This document shows, piece by piece, positions 20,468 to 58,172 of a stretch of DNA of 64,000 nt. Source of the DNA: Candidatus Tayloriibacteriota bacterium (GTDB lineage: Bacteria; Patescibacteriota; Minisyncoccia; Phycocordibacterales; PALSA-1337). The stretch's first letter is position 1. Each line of letters begins with the position of its first letter. The stretch is taken from the NCBI GenBank assembly GCA_028286665.1, contig JAQBRD010000031.1:155-64154 (forward strand). Reading direction: 5' to 3'. The notes beneath the pieces were generated by a model. The model ran no database searches and was not told where the DNA came from. It worked only from the letters and a program-made list of their open reading frames with translations. A program made the position numbers and the translations under genes.

Positions 20468-21595
20468 ATGTATGTTGGATGGATGAAAAGAAATATATAC
20501 ATAGCCATTGCTGCGCTTGCCGTCTGCGGGCTTTTTGTCGCATTGCATATCAGTCCGAAGCGCCAGCCTGTTTCTATCGGATTCGTCGGACCTTTCACTG
20601 GAAATTCAGCATTCTTCGGAGAGTATATGCAGAGAGGCCTTGATATTGCCCGCAGCGAATATTCCGCCGATGATATTTCGCGAGTGAGGATCATTAAGGA
20701 AGACGATGCCTGTTCAGCAAAGAATGCATTAAGTGCGGTTCAGAAACTGATTTCAGTCGATCATGTGAAATACGTCATCGGCCCGCTTTGCAACGAATCT
20801 TCTGTCGCGACAGAGCAGCTGTTCGAAGATAGCCGTGTCATATCAGTGACGATCGGCCTCCCGTCGAACAAGATCGCGAATATGGGGCCATATCATTTCT
20901 CATTCTCTCCAGAAATCGAATATTTGATGAAGGCCATAAGCGGAGAAATTATTAAGAAGAAAATAACGAGAGTGGCGGTGATCCATATGATCGGAGCTTT
21001 CGAGGATGAGAATTATCGGCATTTCATAAAATATCTTTCTATGGGCGGCGTTTGGCTGGCGGCAGATGTTTCTGAAATAAAAGGCACGACCGATTTCAAA
21101 GCATCAATCCTTAAAATAAAGCAATCGAACCCGGATGGCATCATGATCGTCGCTCACACTGCCGAATTGAACAATATTCTCAAGCAGATGGACGCGCAAG
21201 GTCTTCGCGGGCTTCAGAAGTTCGGTATTCATGCTGCTGAAACCAAATTGCTGCTCGAGCAGAAAGACATCGCTGAAGGTTTCATCTACCCGTATCCTGG
21301 CGATGATGCCGAAAGCCAATCTGCAAAATCATACGCTCAGAAATATGCCGATGCGTATCATGCGGCGCCAGACCCTTCTTCGGTAAATGTCTATAACAGC
21401 TATAAGATACTTATTTCGGCAATCGGTGAGTGCGGGTATGAAAACAGCGATTGCGTTCAGCGTAAGTTATCTCAGCTCAAGGATTTTCCTGGAGCGAGCG
21501 GAAGCCTGTCTGTCGATGAGAGGGGAGTCGGCACATATAAGCAAATCATGCTGAAGACAGTGCATAATGGAAAATTCGAAAAGCTGAGCGAATAG
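20468..21595 (+). CDS. LivK-type substrate-binding protein, copy 2
   Basis: The protein has VSIGFVGPFTGNSAFFGEYMQRGLDIA...RIIKEDDACSAKNA. The N-terminal anchor carries a possible lipobox (LAVC). Confidence 0.8.
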   Translation: MYVGWMKRNIYIAIAALAVCGLFVALHISPKRQPVSIGFVGPFTGNSAFFGEYMQRGLDIARSEYSADDISRVRIIKEDDACSAKNALSAVQKLISVDHVKYVIGPLCNESSVATEQLFEDSRVISVTIGLPSNKIANMGPYHFSFSPEIEYLMKAISGEIIKKKITRVAVIHMIGAFEDENYRHFIKYLSMGGVWLAADVSEIKGTTDFKASILKIKQSNPDGIMIVAHTAELNNILKQMDAQGLRGLQKFGIHAAETKLLLEQKDIAEGFIYPYPGDDAESQSAKSYAQKYADAYHAAPDPSSVNVYNSYKILISAIGECGYENSDCVQRKLSQLKDFPGASGSLSVDERGVGTYKQIMLKTVHNGKFEKLSE

Positions 21596-35254: not shown

Positions 35255-36373
35255 ATGAATACCAAATCATTGCGGATTCTCTGTTCCATCCTTCTCCTAG
35301 TCATCATCGTCTTCGCTGTCTATAAGGGCAGCAAAGGAAATGAAGCATCTGGAGACATAAAGATCGGGGGTATCCTCATCATGAGCGGCGGCGGCGCAGC
35401 TTGGGGCGACGGATCGAAGAGCGGCATGCAGATGGCTGTCGAGGATATCAATAAGAATGGGGGAGTCAACGGAAGAAAGCTCAGCCTTGTTCTGGAAGAT
35501 GATGCGGGAGATCCGAAGAAGGCCATCAGCGCCTTCTCGAAGCTGACCAACTCGGACGGAGCAAAATTCATCATCGGTCCGAATTGGTCTAATTCCGGAC
35601 TCGCACTCGTTGATTTGGCGAAGAATAACAAGGCTGTCCTCATATCTCCGACACTCGGCGTGAAAGAATTCAATGAAGGAAGCGAAAACATATTTAACAC
35701 ATGGCCGCACGACTTCATCCTTTCGCGGAACATCGCTGACTATGTGTACAAGAAAGGATATCGGAATGTCGCGATATTCGGACTGCAGGATTCGTGGGTA
35801 TATGATCAGACGAAGAATTTCAAGGAAAGGTTCGAAGAGTTGGGCGGCAAGGTCGCGTTGGTCTATGAGCCACAGGCGACTGAAACAGATATGCGCGCAG
35901 GAATAACTAAGGTGAAGGCTGATAAATCGATCGATGCGATCATTATGACCGTCGCCGGCTATAGCCAATCGCATATCATGCCGCAGCAGATCCGAAGCCT
36001 TTCGGTAAACCTTCCGATCTTCTCGGTCAACATCGACAAGAAATCGATTCATGATTGCGGAGCAGCTTGTGAAGATATGATCTTCCTCAGTTATTTCACT
36101 CCGAATAAGCAGTTCGAAGCGAAATACAAGGCAAAATTCGGAGCCGAGGTGCTGATAGGCGCCGATTCATCTTATGACGCGGTGATGCTTCTTGCGAAAG
36201 CGATGACTGAAACGAAAAGCACTGATGTTGCGAGCGTCTCCAAGTATCTGAATGCGGTGAAAGAATATGATGGAATGTCGGGCAATCTGAAGTCGGATGG
36301 GAAGAGGGCTTTCATAAAGCCGTACACGGTGAATAGGGTGATGAAGGGGGAGCCTGTAGCCATAGTAGAATAA
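35255..36373 (+). CDS. LivK-type substrate-binding protein, copy 3
   Basis: After an N-terminal anchor comes IKIGGILIMSGGGAAWGDGSKSGMQMAVEDINKNGGVNGRKLSLVLEDDAGDPKKA. Confidence 0.8.
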   Translation: MNTKSLRILCSILLLVIIVFAVYKGSKGNEASGDIKIGGILIMSGGGAAWGDGSKSGMQMAVEDINKNGGVNGRKLSLVLEDDAGDPKKAISAFSKLTNSDGAKFIIGPNWSNSGLALVDLAKNNKAVLISPTLGVKEFNEGSENIFNTWPHDFILSRNIADYVYKKGYRNVAIFGLQDSWVYDQTKNFKERFEELGGKVALVYEPQATETDMRAGITKVKADKSIDAIIMTVAGYSQSHIMPQQIRSLSVNLPIFSVNIDKKSIHDCGAACEDMIFLSYFTPNKQFEAKYKAKFGAEVLIGADSSYDAVMLLAKAMTETKSTDVASVSKYLNAVKEYDGMSGNLKSDGKRAFIKPYTVNRVMKGEPVAIVE

Positions 36374-36488: not shown

Positions 36489-39400
36489 ATGGATATGAAA
36501 AAAATCGCTGTATTCCTCGGCATCCTGGCGGTCGCGTTCTCGGGTTTTTTTGCGGTGAAGCATGATGCGCAGGCTAGTTCGATGGGATATATAGAGTCGA
36601 GTTGCATCTATTACGGATATCAATCGAATGGCAATACTTTCTCTGAAACCCGTTTCTGGGATATGCCGATCACTGATGCGATGCCTGCTCCTCAGAATCT
36701 GGGAACTCTCATTGCGACATATGCAGCGTCGAAGCCTGCAGGCGACAGGTCAGAGAGTCGTCAAAATAATTCTACGTCTAAATTGGCTTACCCGGTAGGC
36801 TGCCAAAAATATTCCGGTTTTTTCACCTATAAGGTTATGAGCATGGTCCTCAGCACCGATGACTCGGTTCGGTTTTCAGACGGCAATACGGTGCGAGACT
36901 ATGCGGGACCGGTGAGCGCGGTGGATGAAGTAATGACCAGCCATGCGGACAAGCTTACTTTCAACGTGATACCAAAATTCCGCGGACCCGCGACTACTCT
37001 TGCGGCAAGCGTCTCAGGAAATCAGGTGACTCTTGCTTGGAGCAATCCGTTTCCGGCGAAATCTCTTGCCATGACTAGCTATGTGGCTGCGGTTGAGCGG
37101 GCACGTGCAGGATCGAATTCATTCGTGCAGGTGAGCCCCGCTCTCGATCAAAGCTTCAGCATGCCGTATTCGAATATCGGAAACTATACGAAATTCTTCA
37201 CGCCGCAATTGACCTACACGGATACCTCGGCGCCTGAAGGAGATTTTGATTATCGAATCAGGATAGACATGTCTTTTCAGACAGCCACTGGCGAATTCTA
37301 TGTAAATGGCGGAAGCAGCCAAGATGGTTATTATGCAAAGACATATCATTATTCGACCGTCGCGAGCGCAAAGTTGCCACCGAAAGCTCCGAAGCTCGCT
37401 TCGATCAGTCCAAATAGCTTCAGTGTCGATGCGACAGAAACGCCGCCGGTCACTATCGCTGGAACTGGCTTCAAGCCGACCGGCAATTCAATCAAGTTCG
37501 TTCATGCGACCATCGCAGGCAAGGTATACCGCATCGATGACGTATCGAGCGCTGGAACCTCTCTCGCTTTCGATCTGCCCGCAGGCATGACGCAAGGAGC
37601 ATATAACGTAACGACGAAAGTCACTGATAGCCCTTGGAGCAATGAGCTCACCGTCAGGGTTCTTCCGAAGAGTCCTGCGGCACTTACAGCGAAATTCGTA
37701 TTTACTGATACTAAAAAAGGAATCGATCTCGATTGGAGCGGAGGCGCAGCGAATTCGATTGTTTCTGGGTATGAGGTGGAAAGGGCTTCTGGGTATAGGG
37801 CAGACTCTGCAGAGTATAAGAAGATATCGGAAACTACCGGAAAGACAGCCTTCGATGCAAATTTGAATTTGCTTACTACGAAGGATATTTTTTACCGGAT
37901 CAAGACTAAATTCACTGATGGAACTTCCGTTACCTCTAATGTAGCTTCGGTTCCCGCGTGTCAGAAGATTGCGGGAAATGGTCCGGTCAAAGTCGTGTTC
38001 ATGAGAGATAAGAAAATATCCGAAGATCTCAAAGTAGATGCATTTTACGGTGTAGTCTTGAATACAATAAAACTCGGCTTCAGAAGGACAGATCCCTTCA
38101 AGGCGTATGCTAACAAATTCTCCTTCTATATCGATCTTGAAGAATATGATACTTATGATGATTGGTCGATGCCTGAAGGCACGGCAAAATCTCAATCTGA
38201 GTGCGGAAAGGATGCAAAGATTTATATTTATTACAGCACAAAAGTAGGAAAAACAGCTTACTCATACTTCAATAGCGGAGAGGTGTACATGATGCCTTTT
38301 GATTTATTGCCTACAGCAGGCTTCGATAATCTTATCGATTATGAGAAAAAAATACGTCTGCTCGATAGCAGCGCATCTTCTTCACTTATTCTTGCGCAGG
38401 CTACGCTTCACGAAGTCGGGCATGCTTTCGGAAGATTGCGAGACGAATATATCAGAAGTACTGAGCCTGAACCGTCTTCATTGAGCGTTTTCGATTCCGT
38501 AAATTGCAGCACTAAACCATCGTCTGATTTCCGAAGCTCTATCAATAATCAGATATACGGTTCATTGACAAGCGTCGGCTGCAGCTATCTCAAAGCATAC
38601 ACCGGTCATGCAGGCGATACCTCCAATACATTCTACAAGCCGAGTAAGGCAAGCTTGATGGATACGATACATGCAACCAAGAATCCAGACGGTACGTACA
38701 TAACGTATTCGCGAATATCATCTCCTCGATTCAATGTTATCTCTTGCGGGTATCTCATTTCGGCAATTCTCGGAGAGCCTACGGATAAGGCACATGCGCA
38801 AACGCATTGGCAAGAATGCGCGACGGAACTCGATACTGAGACGGATACTCCGCCGCTTGCCGGCAAGCCGGGGACCTTGAAATCATCAAGCTCCATCGTA
38901 TATCCAGGCAATGCGATAAAATCATCAGCAAACTCAGTTTCAAAAATGAATTCCGTGCCAACCTCGTCAGATCGAAACAGCTTGATCATCAGCGGTTCTG
39001 GCTTCACTCCGGAGGGGAACAATATTCGCTTTGCCAATACTGCAACAAAGAAGGTTTTCGAGATAAATGAGGTTCCAAGCATCGACGGAAAAACTCTGCA
39101 GCTAGATATTCCAAACGATACCGATCCAGGAACATACAACGTAAGGGTGGGGGCATTCAACAGTCCTTGGAGTGACGCGATATCGCTTCAAGTGCTCGAT
39201 TTCCCGAAGATTGCTTCATTTAGTCCTGCATCAATCACGCTTAGCGAGCTCTCGAAGCCGATCCTCATCAAAGGATCTAATTTTATCGTCGGACATACGG
39301 TGACGGTTTCATTCGCGCCGAAGAGCGGAGGATCGGCTATCATAAGCACCGCGAAAGTTGCAACGAGTACGAAAATTTCCGTTATACCGCCGGCCTCGCT

Positions 39401-42104
39401 TGCTGTTGGAACATATCAGGTCTTTGTTTCGGATTCGACCGATGGCGCGAAAGTCGAAACCAATAAGCTCGACCTCGGCGTGTATGAAGCTCGAGTGGCG
39501 GTTCCTACGATTTCTGCAGCTTCGCCAGCGAAAGCTGGTCCGAGCGCGAGCGTCGCCCTGAACGGTACTCATTTCACCGCAGATTCGATCGTGAGGATCT
39601 GGAACGATTCTCAGGAATATTCCGTGACGCCGACGATCGCATCGAGCACGAGACTGACATTCATCGTTCCTGCGAATGCGGTTCTCGGAACATACTCGGT
39701 CAAGGTCCTTGCGGGATCAGTCGGCGAATCAACCTCGCTTCCATTCCAGATTCTTTCCATTCCGAATATCACAAGCATCACTCCGAGATCTCTCGCCAAC
39801 CCTAATGTGACAGGGAAGCCGATCGTTCTTGCAGGCGTCCGCTTCATCGTCGGCCATATGGTAGATGTCGTATTCGAGCCAAAAAGCGGAGCCGCGTCAA
39901 CTCCCGTTTCAGTCAGAGTCGCAAGTTCGACGCGTATCACGCTCAGTGCTCCGGCCTTATCCGTTGGCATCTATGACGTATCTGTCGTCGATGGTTCTAT
40001 CGAAACAAACAAAGTGGCCTTCACAGTATCGAACGGCATTCCGGCGATCACTGCAATGAACCCTCCTGCGGAAGGTCCTGGCGGAACGATAACCGTCTCA
40101 GGCGCAAGATTCGTCGATGGGATCGTCCTGCGGATACTCCCGGGAACGACGGTCATCCCGGCCGCTTCGACCACGGTTGCTGCTGACGGCAGAACACTCA
40201 CATTCATCGTGCCATCCGGACTCGCGGCAGGCAGTTATGCATTGAGAGCTGCAGTTCCTGGCGTGGGAGCAAGCAATGATTTCGTATTCACGATTCTTTC
40301 AGGTCCCGTTCTGACCTCGGCTCAAGCGTCGGGCGGCGATCAGTATTCGATCAGCGGTTCCAATTTCGTAGTTGGCAAGACCGCAACGGTCAATTTCGCT
40401 CCTCGAGCCGGAGGCAGCAGCGTGCTGGCTTCTGCAGTGATCGCATCATCGACGCAGGTAAGCGTGAACGCTGTTCTTCCGGAAGGGAATTACGATGTCT
40501 CGATGACTGTCGATTCCGTGACCACGAACAGAGTCATATTCTCGACTAACCCTCCGATACTGACATCCTTTACAACGGATGCGCCGGTACCAGATCAGCC
40601 ATATTGCGACTCGCCGAGTCCGGTGACCTTCACTGTTACGGGCAGGAATTTCCTCGCGTCATCCGTTCTCAAAATAATCGGAGCCGGCGGAAAGGTGTAT
40701 CCATTGAATAACAATCAGGTTTCTGCTGATAAGGCATCTATCTCCGCTCAGTTCAATTACCGATGCGCGACAGCTTCTGACAATGGAGCGGGAACTATTT
40801 CGCAGGGGGCTTATTCGCTCGTCGTCGATGGCCTGAGCCCGATCGTGAGCAATAGCCTTCTCTTCAACATACCTTACCCGATGCGGATCCTTCCGCTCGG
40901 CGTGACGGACGTCATCCAATCGGGTCAGATCGTCCTCGTCGGCTCCATGCAGATATTCCATGTGCAACGAGGCAGCGACTTCACTCAGACTTGGGACATT
41001 TTGGGTTCCGGCGGGTCGCTGTCCTATACTGCGATACTCAGCCGCTTCGATCCGTTCATCGATGTCGCCAACTATACGAATAACACGATCGCATACCAAT
41101 ATAGGAACAGCATCAACGCTTCCGGAGGGGTTGTCGGGTCCGCTTTCAATGTGACTATTCCTACAGCTTCCATTCCTGTAGGAACGTATACATTGAAAGC
41201 AGGATTGAATTATCCAGGAAATCCACCTCGATCGTTGCCGCTCATACCGACTGCGAGCGTGGGAGATGCTAACCTTCCATGGTACGACGCCTCGTATTCG
41301 CCGGGATATCGATATACAGTCGGATTCTTGATGGTTGAGGATGCTGCCGCAACGGCGGCTTCAGTCAAGAAAACGCAGAGCGCAGCATCGACGCCTCTTA
41401 CGCTGAGCGCCCTTATCAAAAATGCCGCATCGACATCGACATCAGCTGCGAAGATCGTCGCTCCCGTTTCAGCTCCTGTCTCTGTTCCTGTTCCGAAACC
41501 TGCTACATCAACTCCGGCAATTTCAATTGCAGCTACCACAAGCTCAACAATTTCGATCCCGTCAGCTCCGACCCCAGTTCCAGTAGCGCCGATTCCAGTT
41601 CCTGCGCCGACACCCGTACCAGCTCCGGTTCCTGCGGTCATGCCGATCACTATCCTCCCATGGTCTGCACAAGCAACCATCCAGGCAGGGAAGTCTCTCC
41701 CATACACGCTTAATTGGAGCGGCGGTCCTACGGAGAAGACTTGGAAATCATTCATCCATGTCGTGAAGGGCGATGGCACGACTGTCGCGGCAGATGCATA
41801 CTATCCTTCTACTCCGACGACCCAGTGGTCTGGAAGTCAGAATTTCAGTAGCTCAGTGGCGATACCTCCGACGCTTGCTCCAGGTACGTATCGGGTCATG
41901 GCCGGTCTCTGGATCCCTGTGGGAACTACGCCGTCAGCTGATTTGAAACTCGTCCCAGGATCCGGCGTGACGCTCGATCCGGCATATAGCGCACATTATC
42001 GATACCAAGTCGGGACGATCACGGTGACGTCGCCGTCATCAGCGCTCGGAGCGATGATCAGCGCGCTCGGCGATGACTTCATCTCGCGTTTCTTCAGCAG
42101 GTAG
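36489..42104 (+). CDS. Giant modular surface protein (1871 aa): signal peptide, Fn3-like modules, about 9 IPT/TIG-like Ig repeats, zincin metallopeptidase-like domain (HEVGH...DEY, M64-like), Pro/Thr/Ala-rich linker, C-terminal domain
   Basis: The signal peptide is MDMKKIAVFLGILAVAFSGFFAV. Repeats of about 85-90 aa of the form P.I.S..P........I.G..F..G..V.F.P..G.......V.S.T.I....P..L..G.Y.V.V recur about nine times. LAQATLHEVGHAFGRLRDEYI matches the HExxH(x7)DEY pattern of family M64. A PVPAPTPVPAPVP linker follows. Confidence 0.75.
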   Translation: MDMKKIAVFLGILAVAFSGFFAVKHDAQASSMGYIESSCIYYGYQSNGNTFSETRFWDMPITDAMPAPQNLGTLIATYAASKPAGDRSESRQNNSTSKLAYPVGCQKYSGFFTYKVMSMVLSTDDSVRFSDGNTVRDYAGPVSAVDEVMTSHADKLTFNVIPKFRGPATTLAASVSGNQVTLAWSNPFPAKSLAMTSYVAAVERARAGSNSFVQVSPALDQSFSMPYSNIGNYTKFFTPQLTYTDTSAPEGDFDYRIRIDMSFQTATGEFYVNGGSSQDGYYAKTYHYSTVASAKLPPKAPKLASISPNSFSVDATETPPVTIAGTGFKPTGNSIKFVHATIAGKVYRIDDVSSAGTSLAFDLPAGMTQGAYNVTTKVTDSPWSNELTVRVLPKSPAALTAKFVFTDTKKGIDLDWSGGAANSIVSGYEVERASGYRADSAEYKKISETTGKTAFDANLNLLTTKDIFYRIKTKFTDGTSVTSNVASVPACQKIAGNGPVKVVFMRDKKISEDLKVDAFYGVVLNTIKLGFRRTDPFKAYANKFSFYIDLEEYDTYDDWSMPEGTAKSQSECGKDAKIYIYYSTKVGKTAYSYFNSGEVYMMPFDLLPTAGFDNLIDYEKKIRLLDSSASSSLILAQATLHEVGHAFGRLRDEYIRSTEPEPSSLSVFDSVNCSTKPSSDFRSSINNQIYGSLTSVGCSYLKAYTGHAGDTSNTFYKPSKASLMDTIHATKNPDGTYITYSRISSPRFNVISCGYLISAILGEPTDKAHAQTHWQECATELDTETDTPPLAGKPGTLKSSSSIVYPGNAIKSSANSVSKMNSVPTSSDRNSLIISGSGFTPEGNNIRFANTATKKVFEINEVPSIDGKTLQLDIPNDTDPGTYNVRVGAFNSPWSDAISLQVLDFPKIASFSPASITLSELSKPILIKGSNFIVGHTVTVSFAPKSGGSAIISTAKVATSTKISVIPPASLAVGTYQVFVSDSTDGAKVETNKLDLGVYEARVAVPTISAASPAKAGPSASVALNGTHFTADSIVRIWNDSQEYSVTPTIASSTRLTFIVPANAVLGTYSVKVLAGSVGESTSLPFQILSIPNITSITPRSLANPNVTGKPIVLAGVRFIVGHMVDVVFEPKSGAASTPVSVRVASSTRITLSAPALSVGIYDVSVVDGSIETNKVAFTVSNGIPAITAMNPPAEGPGGTITVSGARFVDGIVLRILPGTTVIPAASTTVAADGRTLTFIVPSGLAAGSYALRAAVPGVGASNDFVFTILSGPVLTSAQASGGDQYSISGSNFVVGKTATVNFAPRAGGSSVLASAVIASSTQVSVNAVLPEGNYDVSMTVDSVTTNRVIFSTNPPILTSFTTDAPVPDQPYCDSPSPVTFTVTGRNFLASSVLKIIGAGGKVYPLNNNQVSADKASISAQFNYRCATASDNGAGTISQGAYSLVVDGLSPIVSNSLLFNIPYPMRILPLGVTDVIQSGQIVLVGSMQIFHVQRGSDFTQTWDILGSGGSLSYTAILSRFDPFIDVANYTNNTIAYQYRNSINASGGVVGSAFNVTIPTASIPVGTYTLKAGLNYPGNPPRSLPLIPTASVGDANLPWYDASYSPGYRYTVGFLMVEDAAATAASVKKTQSAASTPLTLSALIKNAASTSTSAAKIVAPVSAPVSVPVPKPATSTPAISIAATTSSTISIPSAPTPVPVAPIPVPAPTPVPAPVPAVMPITILPWSAQATIQAGKSLPYTLNWSGGPTEKTWKSFIHVVKGDGTTVAADAYYPSTPTTQWSGSQNFSSSVAIPPTLAPGTYRVMAGLWIPVGTTPSADLKLVPGSGVTLDPAYSAHYRYQVGTITVTSPSSALGAMISALGDDFISRFFSR

Positions 42105-45017: not shown

Positions 45018-45695
45018 CTAGATGTTCCGAGCCTTGAGCTCCTGATTTTCAGAGCCGGCTTCCTTCGCATAATGGATGGCAAGGAACTTCGCGCCGATTG
45101 CCAGCGCGCGATATGCTCGGCCGGAAACTTTCGGATCAAGCGGCGAGCTGGCCTCGATCGATTGATGAAGATCATGGAGCGCCCTCTCGATGTCGTCGGC
45201 CTTTCCGATCGCCATGAGCGCTTTCACGATCTGGCCGAGGAGAAGCGTCTTCGATCCGGCATTTCCTTCGCTCTCAGCCTTCGACAATCCTTGTTTCAGG
45301 AGGTTGAGCGCATGCTCCGCGTCCTTCGTCGTGCTGAGAATGATGACTCCGGCGACTTCGAAGTCGCTTGATGACCATTCGCTTCTGTCCGTCTCTTCTG
45401 CAAGCGCGACTGCTTCCTTGGAAATCTCAAGCGCTTCATCAAGGAGCTTTTGCCACTCCTCGTTGATAATGCCTTCCGTTTCCTCGAGAGCAGCTGTCGC
45501 CGTTCCGATGATGTCGACGCAAGTGCTCGCAAGCTGAAGCTGCCCGCCCTTGATCTTTCCTTCGTTGATGAGCCTGTGCCGTTCCAGGAGGGAATGAGCG
45601 AGGAGTTCTCGTTTGTGTTTGACTGTCGTGCCTTTCCAGGCGAGATCGTATGGTTTCATAGATATAATGTGCTGTTTCGGCCTATGGATATTCAA
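45018..45695 (-). CDS. Hypothetical alpha-helical protein
   Basis: An ORF of 213-225 aa. The start may be the internal Met (MKPYDLAWKG, 45659). No family-specific motif was seen. Confidence 0.4.
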   Translation of the reverse strand: MNIHRPKQHIISMKPYDLAWKGTTVKHKRELLAHSLLERHRLINEGKIKGGQLQLASTCVDIIGTATAALEETEGIINEEWQKLLDEALEISKEAVALAEETDRSEWSSSDFEVAGVIILSTTKDAEHALNLLKQGLSKAESEGNAGSKTLLLGQIVKALMAIGKADDIERALHDLHQSIEASSPLDPKVSGRAYRALAIGAKFLAIHYAKEAGSENQELKARNI

Positions 45696-45750
45696 TAGGT
45701 GGTCATAGTTATGACGTCGTTAATAGGTTTGGCTTACAGCATGTGGGGCG

Positions 45751-45826
45751 AAAATGAATCGGTCACAGGTCTCGGACTGCTGTCCTCGCCTGCGACCCCG
45801 CCTCGGCCGCCTTCGCGCCCTCCGGC
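45751..45826. repeat. Structured intergenic repeat, copy R1 (about 75 nt)
   Basis: GGTCACAGG-[19-nt hairpin]-CCTGCGACC-CCGCCTCGGCCGCCTTCGCGCCCTCCGGC-TTTCGATTCC. This aligns to the copy at 51686-51760 and shares its stem architecture. Confidence 0.5.
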
Positions 45827-45841
45827 TTTCGATTCCTGCCA

Positions 45842-45872
45842 GGAGCAAAAGAAAAACCGGCACAGCCGGTTT
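45842..45872. terminator. Bidirectional terminator (3' of tRNA-Arg on - strand)
   Basis: aaaaaccggc-acag-gccggttttt, followed by cttttttt. Confidence 0.55.
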
Positions 45873-45881
45873 TTCTTTTTT

Positions 45882-45956
45882 TGGTGCTCCTGGCAGGAAT
45901 CGAACCTGCATTTCTCCCTTCGCAGGGGAGTGTCCTATCCATTGAACGACAAGAGC
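45882..45956 (-). tRNA. tRNA-Arg (anticodon GCG as read; CCA encoded)
   Basis: The reverse complement is gctcttgtcgttcaatggataggacactcccctgcgaagggagaaatgcaggttcgattcctgccaggagcacca. The acceptor is GCTCTTG/CAGGAGC, the anticodon stem CTCCC/GGGAG, the loop CTGCGAA and the T-loop TTCGATT. Confidence 0.75.
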
Positions 45957-46038
45957 GTATCTGGCGGACTGCTCCGAAACCGGACGCACTTCGCAAGTGA
46001 AAACAGCCTATCACGCCGGCACGCAATTTCCAAATTCC

Positions 46039-46503
46039 CTAGAAGCCGAGATACTCGAGGATCTTCTGAGTAAGCGGCTCGTGGTGCTGCGTTTCAGCTA
46101 TGTAATTGAGAAGCACCTCGCGCACTTCTTCAGGATCCACATCGTCGATGTGCACGGTGATGTAGGGCATGAATACTTTCTGGGATTTGATGAGGATCTT
46201 CGAAGGGTGCTGATGCGGGTCGATCCAGAAGGATTCGAGCGTGAGGAAAGGGTAGAGGATGTCGCCCATGACTACTCCGCGGTCGTTGATCTCGCAGTAC
46301 ATCAGGCGCGGATGCTTCGACGAAGCGAGGAGGAGCGCCGTAGTGCCGACGATGATCAGTATGCCGAAGATAACATTTCCGAAGATGAATGCGAGAGCTG
46401 CAGCTGTCGCCGCGATGATGCCGACGCTCCAATACCAGTCGGAAGTCTTTTCCGTATGATGATGCTCGAGTGCGTGCCACGAGATGATGGGTGCTGCTGC
46501 CAT
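46039..46503 (-). CDS. Hypothetical membrane protein (2 TM + C-terminal soluble domain)
   Basis: I take the start at the internal Met (MAAAPIISWHALEHHH) to avoid overlap with the upstream gene. The hydrophobic segments are WYWSVGIIAATAAALAFIF and NVIFGILIIVGTTALLLA. Confidence 0.4.
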   Translation of the reverse strand: MAAAPIISWHALEHHHTEKTSDWYWSVGIIAATAAALAFIFGNVIFGILIIVGTTALLLASSKHPRLMYCEINDRGVVMGDILYPFLTLESFWIDPHQHPSKILIKSQKVFMPYITVHIDDVDPEEVREVLLNYIAETQHHEPLTQKILEYLGF

Positions 46504-46511
46504 GTCAGATA

Positions 46512-47042
46512 TTATACACCCTTGTTGAGGTCGACGCCAAAGCATGCGGGTTCGCCAGTGCGGCTATTTTGGAAATATTCCGGGAATTCAGCTTTCTCCC
46601 AAGGAAATACGAACCAATTGCTGCCTTCGACGCCGAAGAAATCAGGCCTATCGACGCATTTGTCTTTATTCACTGCGATGACGACGGTCTTCAGTTCGGC
46701 GACGTTGTATTCATTGCGGAGGATGTCGGCGACTTTCCTCAGCGTCCTTCCAGTTTCAGCTATCTCGTCGACGAGAAGAATTTTCTTTCCTGCGAGATCG
46801 ATCTTCGGCAGATATTTCACGACGAGTTCGCCGCGCGTATCCTTTTCATACGAGCTGACTGAAACAGTGACGATGTTGCTGTTTTTGAATTCCTTGGCGA
46901 TGAGCGCGAGGGGAATGACGCCGCCGGTCGCGATGCCGACGAGGTAATCAGGAGCGAAGCCTGCGGCGGCGATCTGCGCAGCGAGGCTTCGGCAATGCTC
47001 CTCGACTTCGATCCAGGCGATATGGGTGATGTTCGTGTCCAT
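46512..47042 (-). CDS. Type I phosphoribosyltransferase (purine PRTase-like, Gpt/Hpt-type)
   Basis: The PRPP-binding motif is KILLVDEIAETGRTL. I take the start at MDTNITHIAW. Confidence 0.7.
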   Translation of the reverse strand: MDTNITHIAWIEVEEHCRSLAAQIAAAGFAPDYLVGIATGGVIPLALIAKEFKNSNIVTVSVSSYEKDTRGELVVKYLPKIDLAGKKILLVDEIAETGRTLRKVADILRNEYNVAELKTVVIAVNKDKCVDRPDFFGVEGSNWFVFPWEKAEFPEYFQNSRTGEPACFGVDLNKGV

Positions 47043-47141
47043 GCAGGGGATTATAGCAGATGAAGCGTGAGGCATGAGAAAAGCCGCCGGGTTTCACTCG
47101 GCGGCTTTTCTTTCTGCGTTGTTTCTCTTTCCCTACCCGTA

Positions 47142-47504
47142 TTACATGTTTGGAGTCATGCAAGCTCCGAGCCAGCAATGCGCGAGCATCTCCTGCTGAA
47201 TCGCGTTCTTGGTCAGCGGTCCGAAGTATCCGGTAGCAGGGACGTTATGGCTTGCCTGGTACTGAATGAGGGCTGCCTTCGTCTGTCCGCCGAAGTATCC
47301 GAGCGATACTGTAGGCGCGACGTTGAGATATCCCTGCTCTCCGAGGAACGCCTGGAGTTCTGTCGCTCCGTTTCCTGTTGCGCCTGACTGGAGGTCAGAG
47401 CCGTAGAGGATGGAGAGGCTTGCAGTCGCTGCGTGAGCGCTGTTCGCTGCGAAGGCTCCGAAAGCGAGCATGATCGCGAATACTCCGACTGTGATTTTTT
47501 GCAT
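47142..47504 (-). CDS. Secreted peptidoglycan-binding-domain protein
   Basis: The signal peptide is MQKITVGVFAIMLAFGAFAANSAHA. The PG_binding_1-like region reads LQAFLGEQGYLNVAPTVSLGYFGGQTKAALIQYQASHNVPATGYFGPLTKNAI. Confidence 0.6.
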   Translation of the reverse strand: MQKITVGVFAIMLAFGAFAANSAHAATASLSILYGSDLQSGATGNGATELQAFLGEQGYLNVAPTVSLGYFGGQTKAALIQYQASHNVPATGYFGPLTKNAIQQEMLAHCWLGACMTPNM

Positions 47505-47666
47505 ACGGTATTTCTTTGGGAAAGTGTTATTTGGTCTTTCTTATTGATGGTGCCGCGAAGGCCGGGGAATCATTACAAGAGCGATCGTTTCTGATCTCGA
47601 GTGATAAACAAAACACCGCTCGATGAGAGCGGCGGCACGATCCAGTGCGAGGTGTTGGTAAAGCAG

Positions 47667-48014
47667 TCAGGCTGCGAGCAGTCCTCCTGACTCTGTGCGA
47701 AACTGCTCGCTGTTGAAGCGCTCGACAAGCGAAGGCTCGTCGCTGCAGCCTGGCTTTTTCCCGAGGAAGTACACGAGGTACTCGTTTGACTGATCGTCTG
47801 CCCAGGCTCGCATTTCATGCAGGGTGTATTGCCGATCCGCTTCCATCCAGAAGATGAAGACGTTCTCTACGAAGTCGAAGTCGGTCTCATTGCAGATTTT
47901 TCGAGCGGCGGCGAGCGCGAGCTTCGGATCTTCGGTGATGAGCCGCGGCGAGAGGTGGGCGACCGTGGTATCACGGCCATTCTGGCAGGTGACTACGAGG
48001 TATGCTTTTTTCAT
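47667..48014 (-). CDS. Hypothetical protein (115 aa)
   Basis: An ORF whose terminator hairpin (ccgctc-tcat-cgagcgg) lies downstream at about 47625-47645 on the - strand. Confidence 0.4.
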   Translation of the reverse strand: MKKAYLVVTCQNGRDTTVAHLSPRLITEDPKLALAAARKICNETDFDFVENVFIFWMEADRQYTLHEMRAWADDQSNEYLVYFLGKKPGCSDEPSLVERFNSEQFRTESGGLLAA

Positions 48015-48098
48015 AGTTCAATATGGCTTTGCTGGTTTCGTTTTGAACATTAACACTAACGATTGGGTTCCGCAACAAAGAAGAAGCGCTGCTCGAAC

Positions 48099-48527
48099 CT
48101 ATTGAGATGTGGGATATTTTTCAAACTTCGGCACTGCCGGATTCAGGCGATCCCATGGCTGCGCATCGGATACCCATACTTCCATCTGCTGATTGAAGCC
48201 GCTCGGATCATCTAAGCTTGAGGTAAAGATCGCCACGATGCCCGGTGCTGAATCGGGTTTGGATAGGATAGGGGAACCGCAATCAGAGCAGAAGCCTCGA
48301 TGGTTCTTTCCACCTGCCTCGCTCTCTGTCGCGTAGAAACTGAGCTCACCTTGCGTGAGTTTGAAGGTTTCTTTCGGAACGACCGTGTAAGTAGAAAATG
48401 GTCCTCCGCTCGAGTGCTGGCAGTCTCGACAATGGCAGTTGAGCATCGTGACGGGAGCCGCTGCTGATTCGTAGCGGATCTTGCCGCAGGCGCACCCGCC
48501 GGTGAGTTGTGGGTTTATGTCGGTCAT
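48099..48527 (-). CDS. GFA-family (CENP-V/glutathione-dependent formaldehyde-activating-like) zinc protein
   Basis: GGCACGKIRYE...MLNCHCRDCQHSSGGPFS...GFCSDCGSP matches the Gfa cysteine pattern. Confidence 0.7.
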   Translation of the reverse strand: MTDINPQLTGGCACGKIRYESAAAPVTMLNCHCRDCQHSSGGPFSTYTVVPKETFKLTQGELSFYATESEAGGKNHRGFCSDCGSPILSKPDSAPGIVAIFTSSLDDPSGFNQQMEVWVSDAQPWDRLNPAVPKFEKYPTSQ

Positions 48528-48615
48528 ATCTACATTTTATCACTTTTGAGTCGCTTGAGTAAGGCACCTATCAAAGTCATGGTACAATTTTTGTATTATC
48601 AATAGTAACTCATCT

Positions 48616-48906
48616 ATGTTTAAAATAATTTTCCTGGTCGCAATTGTCATCTGTGTGGCGTTCATGCTTAAGAAAAAATCGAAGCTTTCGGAAGGGCAGA
48701 CATCATCAGAACCGCTCCTCGGGAATGAAAAGCTGATAATCTGGATAATATGCCTGCTGAATCCTATCTGGGGAGGAGCGATCTTTTACTACGGATGGAA
48801 AAATAAGCTTCCGGTAAAGGCAAAATCAGCCAATCAGATATCGCTCTGGGCTTTCTTCATTGAATTGGTCTTAGCTGTGGTGGCATTTGCGCTGCTTTCC
48901 ATTTAA
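48616..48906 (+). CDS. Small hypothetical membrane protein
   Basis: A 96-aa ORF with three hydrophobic helices in a lower-GC segment. Confidence 0.4.
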   Translation: MFKIIFLVAIVICVAFMLKKKSKLSEGQTSSEPLLGNEKLIIWIICLLNPIWGGAIFYYGWKNKLPVKAKSANQISLWAFFIELVLAVVAFALLSI

Positions 48907-48911
48907 TATCC

Positions 48912-49649
48912 ATGATGATTTCATTCAATGGCTTCCAGGCATTCTTGCTGTTTCTTGGAACAGTAATCCCTCTCAGTTGCTTATTGTATTTCATGATAGC
49001 TTTGCTATTTGAAATACCAGAATGGAACAGAAGCCGAAAGCTGTCTCTGCTCGCAAAGAAATACGATCTCACTTTCCTGAGGTCGAAAAGAGGGTGGCGA
49101 AATGGCTGGTTGAGTTTGCAGAATGGTCAGAGCAACTTTATTTCTGGAAAGATAGGTCCTTTCGTTGTGGATTTTCACGACTATCTTCTTGTGGAAGGGA
49201 ATCTCGGCCTCGGGTTCAAACCTTCGATTGCTGAAGTTTCTAATAAATGGAATCTGTCAGGCACCGGCGGAACTGCCTTTACTCGCAAGGTATCTATGCT
49301 GAATAGCAAATTCTACCGCAAGCTCCCGCTCAAGGTTCTGACAGAGGTGTTCGAGAAGATTTCTGCCCAGGCTTCAGACAAGGAGGTGCAAGAAATGCTG
49401 TCGGATCTCGATTTTACCAAACATATCATGAGAAATTGGTCCAAAGCCGCCTTCATCTCTGGCTTCGTGGCCATATTTTCCCTCTTCGTCGCGTCACTGG
49501 CCTCACCGGATTTTCCAGATTATTCCATAATAGCAATAATCGCCTTCAATGCTTTTTTGAATATCCCTCTGTTGTTATGGACATCTAAAAAATACGGGAA
49601 ACAATTTCTTCCGGCAGATATCAATCAGTACCCGCAGATGGAGGTATAA
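48912..49649 (+). CDS. Hypothetical membrane protein (245 aa)
   Basis: There are N-terminal and C-terminal TM helices with a central soluble region in between. No family was identified. Confidence 0.4.
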   Translation: MMISFNGFQAFLLFLGTVIPLSCLLYFMIALLFEIPEWNRSRKLSLLAKKYDLTFLRSKRGWRNGWLSLQNGQSNFISGKIGPFVVDFHDYLLVEGNLGLGFKPSIAEVSNKWNLSGTGGTAFTRKVSMLNSKFYRKLPLKVLTEVFEKISAQASDKEVQEMLSDLDFTKHIMRNWSKAAFISGFVAIFSLFVASLASPDFPDYSIIAIIAFNAFLNIPLLLWTSKKYGKQFLPADINQYPQMEV

Positions 49650-49650
49650 C

Positions 49651-50397
49651 TTATTCCTTCGGAAGCGTATCCCAAATATAGAGAAACATATTTTTGAACA
49701 TGTTTGCGAAAACGACTGAGTCTATCGTTGCCGCATACATTTGATGGTCTTTTATCGCGAACAGCGTCGATTTGCTTCCGCTGATATATATCGAGCTCTC
49801 AATGGGGTATGAGCCGGGCATGACTTTAGTTTCACGCAATCCATTTTTTTCATAGCCGAGTGTATTGTCGCCCTTGTTTAGAACAGGACGAATTATTCTT
49901 ATTGAAATGCCGTGCTTTTCTCTTTCCTGAATCCAGCTATCGCTAATCTTTGGAAAAATGTCAGTAAAATCAGGCCTAATGAAAGAATATATCGTGTTGG
50001 TTTTCTGCTCGATAGCATTTTCAAGTACTCCGTTCATGGCTATCTTCACACCTTCTTTGCCCGTATAGAGCTTTGCGTAGGGAAGCACCTCGTTCTGTTC
50101 TGAGTATGTCTTCAATTCAGGAATCAATTCTTCAAGAATTGTCTTCCTCTCGTTGTACTTCTTCAGAAGCAGATTGGGACTTTCTGGAAAGAAATATGTG
50201 ATCGTATTTTTCTTCCATGAAGATATGTAGCCTGATTTCTCCAGAGCCTTGAGAGTGTGATACACGCTAGTCTTCGGAAGCGAAGTATCCGCAGCTATTT
50301 TGAATGCTGTAGCGTCTTTGAGCTTGAATAGTGACAGATAGACTCGGGCCTCTTTCTTTGAAAAGCCCATTTCCTCAAGATTTTTGGTTATATTCAT
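49651..50397 (-). CDS. TrmB-like HTH transcriptional regulator, paralog E
   Basis: I take the start at MNITKNLEEMGFSKKEARVYLSLFKLKDATAFKIAADTSLPKTSVYHTLKALE, and the C-terminal domain is shared. The gene is divergent from SBP copy 4. Confidence 0.7.
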   Translation of the reverse strand: MNITKNLEEMGFSKKEARVYLSLFKLKDATAFKIAADTSLPKTSVYHTLKALEKSGYISSWKKNTITYFFPESPNLLLKKYNERKTILEELIPELKTYSEQNEVLPYAKLYTGKEGVKIAMNGVLENAIEQKTNTIYSFIRPDFTDIFPKISDSWIQEREKHGISIRIIRPVLNKGDNTLGYEKNGLRETKVMPGSYPIESSIYISGSKSTLFAIKDHQMYAATIDSVVFANMFKNMFLYIWDTLPKE

Positions 50398-50410
50398 GAC
50401 AACTATAGTA

Positions 50411-50429
50411 TAGTCCATATTTTGGACTA
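50411..50429. promoter_or_regulatory. Palindrome TAGTCCA-TATTT-TGGACTA immediately upstream of TrmB-like paralog E (candidate operator)
   Basis: A perfect 7-5-7 inverted repeat with the same TATTT spacer as the palindrome upstream of paralog C. Confidence 0.4.
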
Positions 50430-50527
50430 AATCAACTGTTTAATATATGGCTAATAATATAGACGTAAGTATATTACATATTAATAAAGTCCAAATACGA
50501 AGTATTTATTGACAAAATATAATACTA

Positions 50528-51679
50528 TTGTTCTATAAGAATAAAGAACATATGAAAAAATACATCATTTCTGGCCTAGTTATATTGGTTCTTTCGGGGA
50601 TTTTGTTTGGAATTACGAATCAGCGTGGTTCATCTTCAGCAGTTACTATTGGCTTTCTCGGATCTTTGACCGGTGTAGATCCTAATTACGGAGAGGCGAT
50701 GAAAGGCGGAGTTTCGATTGCGGTGGATGAAATCAATGCTGAAGGTGGAATTGCCGGCAAGAAATTAGAGGTAATTTATGAAGATGGCAAATGCATCGAT
50801 ACCAAGTCAGCGGTGAGCGCTGCCCAGAAACTAATCACAATTGATAAGGTCAATATTATCCTTGGCGGGGGTTGCAGCAACGAGGCTTTGTCTATCGTAC
50901 ATCTCCTCGAAGAATCAAACACACTTCTGCTTTCATCTGGGGCGAGCAGTCCCGCGCTATCAGGCTTGAGCAAGAATGTCTTCCGAAATGCCCCAAGCGA
51001 TGCGCAGACCGGAGAAAAGATCGCGGCATATATGTTTTCAAAGCATTTTCGAAAGGTCGCAATCGTGTCTGATCAAACTGATTATTCAAAAGGCTTCAGG
51101 GATTCGTTTTTGAAATCCTTCGCAAATCTTGGAGGGTTTGTTGTCGAAGATATATCCGTTTCGCCAAAAGGTTCGGATTACCGGACCGATCTGGTTAAGC
51201 TAAAAGGAAAGGAAATCGATGCCATATTCATCAATCCCAACGTACCCGTCAGTGCTGGCATTATCGCAAGACAGGTGAGGGAGCTCGGGATGAATCAGCA
51301 GCTGTTTTTCGCCTATCACGCAACTCCTGATCTGGTCAGAACCGGTGGGGATGCCGTCAACGGTGCGGTAATAATCAATGTCCCGACTCCAGAGAATGAT
51401 GCTGCAAAAAGAATCCTCAAGCGATTCGAAGAAAAATACGGCAAGAGCACAGTCTATCCATACAACACGCTTGCCGCATACGATGCTGCAATGCTCATAG
51501 CTCAAGGGATAAAGAAAGCTGGCAGCAAAACGGAAGATGTTCGGTCGTATTTGCACGAATTGAAAAATTTCACCGGAGCGCTTGGCTCATATCACTTCGA
51601 TGAGAGAGGGGATATCCAAGACCTTCAGTATCGATTTGAAAGGGTTGAGGGCGGAAAGTTTGTCGATATTGTGGAATAA
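50528..51679 (+). CDS. LivK-type substrate-binding protein, copy 4
   Basis: After an N-terminal anchor comes VTIGFLGSLTGVDPNYGEAMKGGVSIAVDEINAEGGIAGKKLEVIYEDGKCIDTKSA. Confidence 0.8.
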   Translation: MFYKNKEHMKKYIISGLVILVLSGILFGITNQRGSSSAVTIGFLGSLTGVDPNYGEAMKGGVSIAVDEINAEGGIAGKKLEVIYEDGKCIDTKSAVSAAQKLITIDKVNIILGGGCSNEALSIVHLLEESNTLLLSSGASSPALSGLSKNVFRNAPSDAQTGEKIAAYMFSKHFRKVAIVSDQTDYSKGFRDSFLKSFANLGGFVVEDISVSPKGSDYRTDLVKLKGKEIDAIFINPNVPVSAGIIARQVRELGMNQQLFFAYHATPDLVRTGGDAVNGAVIINVPTPENDAAKRILKRFEEKYGKSTVYPYNTLAAYDAAMLIAQGIKKAGSKTEDVRSYLHELKNFTGALGSYHFDERGDIQDLQYRFERVEGGKFVDIVE

Positions 51680-51685
51680 AGATTC

Positions 51686-51760
51686 GGTCGCAGGTATTTT
51701 TCTTGTGAAAAATCCTGCGACCCCGCCTCGCGCACCTTCGTGCGCTCCGGCTTTCAAATC
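51686..51760. repeat. Structured intergenic repeat, copy R2 (about 75 nt)
   Basis: GGTCGCAGG-[TATTTTTC-TTGT-GAAAAAT]-CCTGCGACC-CCGCCTCGCGCACCTTCGTGCGCTCCGGC-TTTCAAATCT. The outer 9-bp stem, inner hairpin and second hairpin (GCGCAC-CTTC-GTGCGC) are conserved with R1 through compensatory changes. Confidence 0.5.
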
Positions 51761-51786
51761 TCACGCTCCAATATGCGCAGATAAAT

Positions 51787-51815
51787 GAAAAGCCCTGCAT
51801 TGAGCAGGGCTTTTC
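51787..51815. terminator. Bidirectional terminator between SBP copy 4 and tRNA-Ser
   Basis: gaaaagccctgc-attga-gcagggcttttc. Confidence 0.6.
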
Positions 51816-51823
51816 ATTTATTG

Positions 51824-51910
51824 CGGATGGGGTGAGATTTGAACTCACGGTCCCCTTACGAGGACGACGGTTTTCAAGACCGTTGCCTTAAACCACTCAG
51901 CCACCCATCC
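51824..51910 (-). tRNA. tRNA-Ser (anticodon TGA), type II with long variable arm
   Basis: The reverse complement is ggatgggtggctgagtggtttaaggcaacggtcttgaaaaccgtcgtcctcgtaaggggaccgtgagttcaaatctcaccccatccg. The anticodon loop is CTTGAAA and the T-loop is TTCAAAT. Confidence 0.8.
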
Positions 51911-52006
51911 ATTTGGTGCTTTTCAGCGGGAAGCGCCTGATGCCGCTTCGTTTCCGATAATAACAGAAAGATTCCATTTGCGCCAGATTTGCGTTAGGAT
52001 AGGCCT

Positions 52007-57987: not shown

Positions 57988-58060
57988 ATTTATATCTTCA
58001 GAAGGGGACATGGGTATTATACACAGTGGATGGATTTGGTCACGCATAAAATCTGGGCGC

Positions 58061-58096: not shown

Positions 58097-58099
58097 CTG

Positions 58100-58172
58100 T
58101 GCGCGATGAGGGGCTCGAACCCCCGACCTTTCCCGTGTAAAGGGACTGCTCTACCAACTGAGCTAATCGCGC
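58100..58172 (-). tRNA. tRNA-Val (anticodon TAC)
   Basis: The reverse complement is gcgcgattagctcagttggtagagcagtccctttacacgggaaaggtcgggggttcgagcccctcatcgcgca. The acceptor is GCGCGAT/ATCGCGC, the D-stem GCTC/GAGC, the anticodon loop TTTACAC and the T-loop TTCGAGC. Confidence 0.8.

Follow-up and report, generated by a model that had tools for sequence, protein, structure and literature searches.

What are two small structured elements doing beside two tRNA genes of a Patescibacteria genome, and which strand carries their fold? The question was raised by a 64,000-nucleotide (nt) stretch of DNA from Candidatus Tayloriibacteriota bacterium (assembly GCA_028286665.1, contig JAQBRD010000031.1, positions 155 to 64,154 of the forward strand), here called the window. 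A preliminary description had picked out two intergenic copies, R1 and R2, of one element in it, and had read them either as a + strand RNA, such as a small RNA (sRNA) or a stabilizer in a 3' untranslated region (3'-UTR), or as the ends of a mobile 5.9-kb segment. Judged by sequence, R1 and R2 belong to a large family of short structured elements, one specific to the Patescibacteria, or Candidate Phyla Radiation (CPR). The CPR make up a large share of bacterial diversity and have tiny genomes, with very few known noncoding RNAs (ncRNAs) or mobile elements. We tentatively favor, at a probability of about 0.45, the reading that the element is a miniature, protein-less insertion element with an RNA-type core that targets tRNA genes. 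All of the evidence comes from the sequence of metagenome-assembled genomes (MAGs), with taxon labels as given in the records.

R1 and R2 align over their whole length, as had been reported, and differ in their variable stems; they constitute the sole long two-copy family of that kind in the window (repeat family D10). Both match, far beyond chance, a covariance model that we built from 60 homologues on the tRNA-sense strand: R2 at 51677-51764 of the minus strand with 82.6 bits (E 2.5e-25) and R1 at 45752-45839 of the minus strand with 69.4 bits (E 7e-21), the E-values of this home-made model being rough. There was no other significant match on the minus strand of the window. The cores lie at 45761-45830 and 51686-51755, which shifts R1 by about 5-10 nt from its earlier position.

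Homologous loci were gathered with an exact 21-base core pattern and are thus enriched for intact cores. The pattern occurs in at least 120 genomic stretches, nearly all from Patescibacteria MAGs, including Saccharibacteria, Paceibacterota/Parcubacteria lineages, WWE3, Moranbacteria and similar groups. A covariance-model search, which the preliminary description had proposed, found many further copies: at E<=0.001 there were 137 matches in 98 sources plus 23 in the remaining loci (two of these 23 being weak partial matches in non-CPR contigs), for at least 158 copies in about 120 loci. As the copy total exceeds the source count, several copies per locus are common. A few pattern matches in non-CPR contigs were rejected by the model and are attributed to chance. 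One record labeled as an Elusimicrobiales MAG (L003) holds a 74-bit copy with a perfect 21-nt duplication of tRNA-Arg(CCT), reflecting either mis-binning or a rare occurrence outside the CPR.

The element is apparently undescribed. With Rfam 15, the whole window at gathering threshold yielded only the 8 tRNAs; at E<=10, the intervals 45600-46000 and 51600-51950 gave weak sub-threshold matches, mostly over terminator and tRNA, and no family was indicated (the BTnc231 model crosses a core at 23.7 bits against a cut-off of 80.4). In IMG/VR the strict pattern had no matches and a looser one had seven, all rejected by the covariance model. Blastn searches of the INPHARED phages and PLSDB plasmids returned nothing relevant, and a literature search, including full-text look-up of conserved sequence strings, found no description.

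The strand can be read from the imperfect pairs. In the + orientation, the stems of 69 homologues of the 66-nt size class contain 105 A.C or C.A mismatches and only 7 G.U pairs; the A.C excess therefore corresponds to G.U wobble pairs on the opposite strand, and one such pair is G.U in 127 of 129 sequences when these are read on the minus strand. Likewise, an outer-helix variant that reads U.C/U.C on the + strand becomes tandem G.A/A.G on the minus strand, as does the inner hairpin of R1. The covariance score of R2 falls from 82.6 bits on the minus strand to 26.3 on the plus strand, and folding of single sequences gave minus-strand z-scores of -4.4 for R1 (-2.3 on plus) and -7.0 for R2. The fold belongs to the minus strand, which is the sense strand of the adjacent tRNA genes. 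An sRNA or 3'-UTR element on the + strand is unlikely because both the A.C/G.U ratio and the covariance scores favor the minus strand.

In the tRNA sense the core, of 66-120 nt, folds into a three-way junction of helices P0, P2a/P2 and P1. From 5' to 3' it runs through P0 (about 6 bp), GAAA, P2a (GCC/GGC), GGA, the P2 hairpin, GA, GG and P1, a long hairpin that carries a conserved G.U pair, ends in GUGACC and is joined directly to the 3' strand of P0. The G.U pair, nearly invariant, lies five pairs from the junction. Among 60 gap-free homologues, 94.9% of the cells are paired, versus 77.7% after shuffling and at most 45% with the partners slid; 306 double changes were counted, and the covariation score was 0.53 (versus 0.15), a value reached by none of 500 shuffles. 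Across 135 distinct model-aligned homologues, 28 of the 29 pairs (P2a included) change on both sides, and 93% of the cells are paired versus 71% shuffled. The joining nucleotides of the junction are invariant across the alignment, and P0 covaries with the T-loop sequence of the partner tRNA. About a tenth of the copies (in L004, L040, L050, L057, L074, L120 and others), mostly those with an extended P1, also carry an accessory hairpin with a conserved loop, GAACUGCUUC, 5' of the core; it sits exactly where acceptor and T stems would meet.

Conservation of structure over sequence, with true compensatory changes, had been proposed from R1 and R2 and is confirmed by the 135 homologues. It points to a fold of a single strand, most likely RNA; the suggestion of a function at the RNA level stands in that form, with the plus strand as the folding strand given up. 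The outer 9-bp stem described earlier and the hairpin inside it both exist, the stem having an A.C mismatch on the + strand of R1. The second hairpin differs between R1 and R2 by two compensatory pairs, as claimed, plus one mismatch (C.C in GGCCGC/GCGCCC of R1).

The family is tied to tRNA genes. In 94 of the 125 pattern matches listed, a co-oriented tRNA gene lies 10-256 nt upstream (median 62 nt), and none had one in the opposite orientation; the remaining matches are mostly at contig ends, beside transfer-messenger RNA (tmRNA) genes, or beside tRNA-like genes that ARAGORN missed. The partner tRNAs span 33 anticodon types, and tmRNA genes also serve as partners. The neighboring + strand open reading frame (ORF), by comparison, is unrelated from locus to locus.

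On both sides the core is flanked by tRNA-derived sequence. Within what we call the anti arm, the 5' strand of P0 complements tRNA nt 57-62, and the 3' strand of P0 is nt 57-62 itself, the start of a downstream copy of the tRNA 3' end (segment 'b'). Identity of 'b' with the gene starts in the T-loop, at ...TTC|G57, the boundary being C56|G57 in all exact cases. It runs to nt 73 in 48 of 84 copies (about 57%; at least 10 of 11 positions identical over nt 63-73) and stops 0-3 nt past nt 73 in 39 of these 48, so that 'b' tracks the tRNA end, including CCA where that is encoded. In another 27 of the 84 copies 'b' has decayed and is unrelated to the gene beyond nt 61-65; intermediates are few. Complementarity of the anti arm reaches toward nt 73 in about a third of copies, and distal complementarity of -12 kcal/mol or below occurs in 34% of copies versus 17% of controls. 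Where the two tRNA copies differ, arm pairing at or below -10 kcal/mol is found with the tRNA's own end in 29%, with 'b' in 14% and in controls in 13%. The spacer between gene and arm holds a hairpin, frequently of a terminator-like kind (under a strict rule, in 35 of 118). Over 118 copies, no peak emerged for a -10 box placed at a fixed distance. We found no association with genomically encoded CCA; most 'b' segments lack CCA, which is present in 'b' but not in the gene in 6 copies and the reverse in 1 (not significant).

In the window, the parts are as follows.

45882-45956, minus strand: tRNA-Arg(GCG) gene, upstream partner of R1 (ARAGORN; Rfam tRNA 64.2 bits); its nt 57-73 (GATTCCTGCCAGGAGCA) are segment 'a'.
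45847-45881, no strand assigned: spacer from tRNA-Arg to R1, with a palindromic, bidirectional terminator-like hairpin (AAAGAAAAACCGGC-ACA-GCCGGTTTTTCTTT) that caps a 33-bp hairpin when the minus strand folds.
45831-45847, minus strand: anti arm of R1, reading TGCTCCTGGCAGGAATC, a 17/17 complement of tRNA-Arg nt 57-73.
45761-45830, minus strand: core of R1, GAAA-GCC-GGA-[P2]-GA-GGC-GG-[P1 with G.U and tandem G.A]-GUGACC.
45742-45760, minus strand: segment 'b' of R1, GATTCATTTTCGCCCCACA, whose first 5 nt close P0.
51823-51910, minus strand: tRNA-Ser(TGA) gene, upstream partner of R2 (ARAGORN; Rfam 58.5 bits).
51781-51821, no strand assigned: spacer from tRNA-Ser to R2, with a bidirectional terminator-like hairpin (AAATGAAAAGCCCTGC-ATTGA-GCAGGGCTTTTCATTT) recognized from sequence and fold.
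51756-51769, minus strand: anti arm of R2, reading GGAGCGTGAGATTT and including the P0 5' strand.
51686-51755, minus strand: core of R2, with P2 = GCGCAC-GAAG-GUGCGC, an A/U-rich P1 tip, and G-C in place of the usual G.U.
51669-51685, minus strand: segment 'b' of R2, GAATCTTTATTCCACAA, whose first 5-6 nt close P0; the remainder is unrelated to tRNA-Ser.
58032-58053, minus strand: third copy, truncated, consisting of the last 16 core nt (GATTTTATGCGTGACC) and a P0-like AAATCC.

On the minus strand of R1, the tRNA-Arg 3' end, the terminator and the arm fold together into a single hairpin of 33 bp, with P2 and P1 after it (-98 kcal/mol, z = -9.7). The last 6 nt of this arm are the 5' strand of P0, and its duplex is worth -21.4 kcal/mol with the tRNA-Arg end versus -4.9 with the downstream copy; a scan of the arm region for a sense copy on the + strand gave 1 mismatch in 15. 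Segment 'b' of R1 shares only GATTC with tRNA-Arg; beyond P0 it is laid out like a tRNA 3' end, with no match to tRNA-Arg or to any other site in the window. For R2, the last 9 nt of the arm (GTGAGATTT) are the complement of tRNA-Ser nt 57-65, and the arm together with the first 3 core nt forms a perfect 12-nt complement of nt 54-65. Its 'b' overlaps the stop codon of a + strand Peripla_BP_6 ORF (50528-51679), the core beginning 7 nt past the stop. The truncated third copy, which the covariance model does not match, lies downstream of tRNA-Val(TAC) (58099-58172) and its terminator. That terminator is very like the one after tRNA-Arg (repeat D15).

The preliminary description had correctly placed, past each copy on the + strand, a terminator-like hairpin and then a minus-strand tRNA gene (Arg-GCG, Ser-TGA). 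It had missed the minus-strand fold, the third copy, and the sense copy of the neighboring tRNA's T-loop and 3' end that the + strand shows just past each core (17/17 nt for tRNA-Arg; 12 nt for tRNA-Ser). An intact copy is present at only 2 of the 8 tRNAs in the window. Displaced 3' fragments of tRNA-Arg or tRNA-Ser were found nowhere else in the window, and sigma-70 promoter and terminator scans around R1 and R2 returned no sites by the scanning rules. Because the downstream tRNA copy is unrecognizable past nt 61, both window copies look old or immobilized.

Elsewhere the element is present sporadically. Within the loci chosen for at least one copy, the element follows 111 of the 204 tRNA/tmRNA genes, and in the conserved, syntenic Cys / Leu-taa / Lys-ctt / Leu-tag cluster of Saccharibacteria it is found at different tRNAs in different species. 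Empty sites lack the spacer hairpin. The bases past 'b' at one filled site (CAATA... in L053) resemble the native trailer of an empty site in L019. Whole units also occur in tandem, as arrays of three (L072) or two (L119) and in L096.

Several further observations concern rearranged copies. After tRNA-Cys and tRNA-Leu(taa), L019 carries a second core type (GAAAG...two hairpins...CACC|G57) of the same architecture, which keeps the accessory hairpin, the antisense arm and the duplicated tRNA 3' end; at one tRNA this type is stacked with a standard core, giving three identical 3'-end copies. In two different genomes (L099, 276-427; L061, 4467-4619), an intact tRNA-Glu gene with an element downstream is closely preceded by another core, to which a hairpin links a 5' piece of tRNA-Glu (about nt 1-50). 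Finally, one Logan short-read contig (L130) ends inside the conserved core and its sister contig (L131) inside the tRNA; the element probably causes assembly breaks beside tRNAs in CPR MAGs.

The genomic pattern looks like insertion into tRNA genes, as judged from the T-loop boundary, the 3'-end repeat, the tmRNA targets, the accretion, the fragments and the patchiness. Read in the tRNA sense, a unit comprises an intact tRNA or tmRNA gene, a variable spacer that usually holds a hairpin, the anti arm, the 66-120-nt core and the second copy of the tRNA 3' end, 'b', from G57. Under the favored reading, insertion would occur between C56 and G57 in the T-loop of tRNA/tmRNA genes, and would leave the upstream tRNA complete, since each side carries the 3' end (nt 57-73). 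We postulate that the core RNA would be made by read-through from the tRNA promoter, that the core fold may act as a recognition or catalytic scaffold, and that the anti arm may serve as a guide through pairing with the target's T-loop and 3' half.

Several results weigh against this proposal. Neither the window nor, recurrently, the vicinity of the copies contains an integrase, transposase or reverse transcriptase: Pfam searches of 30 window ORFs, which are housekeeping genes, found none of these and no TnpB, and within 3 kb of copies there was no recurrent protein family, only unrelated housekeeping genes. The core is intact even where 'b' is unrecognizable (GUGACC is still 99% conserved in the decayed class), which fits selection on each resident copy, i.e., a host function. 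A terminator-like hairpin as frequent between tRNA and core as that counted above would limit read-through. The proposal offers no source for a correct 3' end and a matching antisense arm at more than 33 tRNAs. Copies within one genome are nearly as diverged at variable positions as copies from different genomes (0.71 versus 0.65, n=7). Cores did not sort by tRNA type either, and the family thus shows no trace of recent bursts. Moreover, no empty/filled pair was found among closely related strains, and we infer insertion rather than see it: relatives of L029 (85-89% RecG identity) are either filled or have a contig break at the element, an empty-site pattern had no match in the metagenome collection, and L016 and L052 share no synteny beyond the tRNA.

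A bolder form of the insertion reading, which we consider doubtful, would make the element a new class of mobile unit without protein genes, in which an RNA junction of about 70 nt with a programmable antisense arm recognizes any tRNA or tmRNA by its T-loop and 3' half. Such a unit might either (i) insert beside the gene while regenerating its 3' end, or (ii) exchange or cleave the tRNA 3' half at C56|G57, using host enzymes or catalysis of its own. It would amount to a tRNA-directed system, either RNA-guided or similar to a ribozyme, that is distributed throughout the CPR.

The alternative that survives best, possible if on balance unlikely, is a host ncRNA: the core would be a 3' trailer module that is co-transcribed with the tRNA or tmRNA and acts on tRNA biology, whether by helping to mature the 3' end, by insulating or terminating the tRNA unit, in quality control, or by mimicking the acceptor/T-arm 'top half' or acting as its decoy. 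The need of such an RNA to pair with its tRNA, or to imitate it, would then account for arms derived from that tRNA. RNA-type covariation, the nearly invariant G.U and the tandem G.A variants of P0 agree with such a role, as does a position always on the tRNA-sense strand, within about 60 nt of the gene and with no promoter of its own. The junction nucleotides are extremely conserved across CPR lineages while copies within a genome are old and diverged, and the core persists even beside a decayed 'b'; roughly one copy in three has arms lengthened into a helix of 12-17 bp that is built from the tRNA 3' strand, and the accessory hairpin falls precisely at the acceptor/T-stem boundary. A host function is harder to reconcile with the absence of the element from about half of the tRNAs even in chosen loci (and from all but 2 of 8 in the window), with its presence at the same tRNA in one species and not in another, or with the tandem arrays, stacked unrelated cores, truncations and tRNA fragments, which resemble the debris of insertion. 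The full 3'-end copy is also dispensable, having been lost in 27 of 84 copies, and there is no link with encoded CCA.

Viral tRNA-like structures are tRNA mimics. Among bacterial ncRNAs, the Y RNA YrlA also mimics tRNA (PMC4201824). The 12-17-bp arm helix of a subset of copies, with a 3' strand made of T-stem and acceptor and sometimes CCA, is similar to such mimics, and like a minihelix. The element seems to differ from them in that the conserved junction stands in place of the T-loop and a D-loop/T-loop elbow is not apparent; the long helix occurs in only about a third of copies, and no Rfam model matches. ARAGORN called no tRNA or tmRNA in the element.

It is improbable, in our estimation, that the element is a small ribozyme or an intron-like RNA, whose core would cleave or ligate at ...GUGACC|G57 with the anti arm as internal guide for the tRNA 3' half, and which would spread through an RNA intermediate that attacks the tRNA T-loop and is then reverse transcribed. 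The compact three-way junction, its invariant joining nucleotides, the invariant G.U five pairs from the junction and a guide-like arm that covaries with the 'exon' would suit such an RNA, and so would the 6-to-1 bias of CCA toward 'b', had it been significant. Moreover, self-splicing introns in tmRNA genes are known to cluster at the T-loop, which group I introns invade in tmRNA and tRNA genes alike (PMC11915505). These introns use the same few T-loop nucleotides and likewise consist of RNA with a guide pairing to the exon; however, the core of our element is 5-10 times smaller than their catalytic core, and the gene is left uninterrupted, with its 3' end duplicated. The group I assignment was rejected, as the tRNAs are uninterrupted (ARAGORN, Rfam) and nothing matched Intron_gpI. 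No Rfam ribozyme family matched even at E<=10, and no reverse transcriptase is linked to the element. The hammerhead was rejected by inspection of the consensus, its core motifs being absent: apart from GAAA none occurs, CUGANGA is missing between P1 and P0, and an A15.1-U16.1 pair is impossible. A k-turn reading of the consensus was likewise rejected by inspection. Most 'b' segments lack CCA and carry the gene's own trailing bases, which argues for an origin at the DNA level.

A reading of the element as the scars of integrase-borne islands is quite unlikely. Tyrosine integrases of the T-loop class place islands and prophages in tRNA and tmRNA genes (the sublocation classes of Williams). If the core were the attP arm of CPR phages or plasmids that integrate in the T-loop, attL and attR could have been left after loss of the body. 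The direct repeat from T-loop to gene end, the tmRNA targets and the tandem accretion are the classical signature of that class, as are a targeted 3' part, a gene left intact and a fixed orientation, and we did find the insert flanked by a direct repeat of the tRNA 3' segment. We did not find an integrase or a kilobase-sized body: the insert measures only about 130-200 nt and holds no integrase or other gene, the gap between tRNA and core is at most 256 nt (median 62 nt), and longer gaps are tandem arrays. Neither between the repeats nor next to them does any copy have a long insert or an integrase; IMG/VR, INPHARED and PLSDB contain no match; and over 100 genomes carry the element at this one small size. 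Strand-specific covariation of an RNA-type fold with a conserved G.U, unexpected for a double-stranded, protein-binding arm, also sets the element apart from these islands, as do its arm antisense to the target and near-identical cores at at least 33 tRNA types.

The readings first proposed for R1 and R2 are barely credible: the terminator-like hairpin with a T-run past each copy and the start of R2 so soon after a stop codon would suit a + strand sRNA or 3'-UTR stabilizer ending at the terminator, but the mismatch ratio, the bit scores and the G.A/G.A variants all point to the minus strand and the upstream + strand neighbor differs from locus to locus, while repeats bounding a mobile or duplicated segment at 45.75-51.76 kb, which low GC at 48.5-51.5 kb might suggest, are contradicted by a multi-copy family at many tRNAs, by housekeeping and regulatory genes with no mobility gene between the copies, by a low-GC block that the copies do not delimit, and by the lack of displaced tRNA fragments. 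Comparison of the 45.7-51.8 kb region with related genomes, which had been suggested for the segment, yielded as nearest flanking binding-protein homologue one that is 53% identical and not syntenic.

Three other known systems invite comparison. In IS200/IS605 elements TnpB works with an omega-RNA, and type V-K CRISPR transposons use a delocalized CRISPR RNA that homes to tRNA genes. In apparent likeness to these, a structured scaffold at the end of the element is followed by 17-20 nt of flanking target (here tRNA nt 57-73), 3' of a short motif (GTTC of the T-loop), in a fixed orientation and tens of nucleotides past the tRNA. Two features depart from the IS200/IS605 layout: duplication of the target, and a core that stops within a helix instead of beyond a linker. 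The scaffold is also shorter (66-120 nt), matches no Rfam model and has an extra antisense arm. No TnpA, TnpB or Cas12k gene lies near the element, and neither TnpA nor TnpB, as expected of IS200/IS605 or PATE units, was found in it or recurrently near it.

Integron attC sites and the attP hairpin of CTX-phi are recombination sites made of a folded single strand. Both they and the element conserve structure on one strand, units without ORFs can form arrays, and the inverted repeats (anti arm and nt 57-62) around a structured center could rebuild a duplex target site. The core, though, is highly conserved and branched, its conserved G.U and G.A features favor RNA, and the folded strand in the window is the leading-strand template. 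The attC reading was rejected: there are no RYYYAAC...GTTRRRY (R'/R'') boxes, the fold is a three-way junction rather than a single hairpin, and there is no integron integrase.

Like miniature inverted-repeat transposable elements (MITEs) and REP/BIME sequences, the element is small, non-coding, multi-copy, intergenic and rich in hairpins, and such repeats break short-read assemblies. Unlike them, it lacks terminal inverted repeats of its own, carries a tRNA-specific duplication of 17-19 nt, is strictly associated with tRNA/tmRNA 3' ends and is conserved across a whole superphylum. A MITE was rejected on the grounds that the insert ends (the spacer start and ...GUGACC) are not inverted repeats and the duplication is tRNA-derived. 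In at least one defining respect, the element departs from every family considered.

Its junction nucleotides are nearly invariant across Saccharibacteria, Paceibacterota, WWE3 and others, with many copies per genome. If the element is mobile, essential tRNA genes would be targeted without any protein that it encodes and with an arm matched to each target, which would bear on RNA-guided insertion. If it is a host RNA, it could fill a gap in tRNA maturation or quality control among organisms in which many standard pathways are absent. The covariance model is ready for use in annotation, and the element probably accounts for assembly breaks beside CPR tRNAs.

As to the surroundings, the position of dnaN at the left end (1335-2438) and a positive GC skew between 4 and 52 kb indicate that the window is probably next to the replication origin, with the + strand leading; in this arrangement both elements, like tRNA-Arg and tRNA-Ser, face replication head-on. 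The lower GC content that had been noted inside the 5.9-kb segment is real over 48500-51500 (0.38-0.47 against about 0.53 in the flanks), in a block that is not bounded by the repeats and that adjoins the downstream side of R2. This block, which may have been acquired horizontally, contains the following genes.

48912-49649: ORF without a Pfam match.
49651-50418: TrmB-like regulator.
50528-51679: Peripla_BP_6 binding protein.

The tRNA-Arg of R1 has the anticodon GCG rather than the usual bacterial ACG, a type also found in the related loci L012, L024 and L047. Within 35 kb there are four paralogous Peripla_BP_6 genes of the branched-chain amino-acid type (16600-17733, 20468-21595, 35255-36373 and 50528-51679). 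Between the last two, an ORF of 1871 aa (36489-42104) has only TIG/IPT and Ig-like domains, and its product is probably a surface protein.

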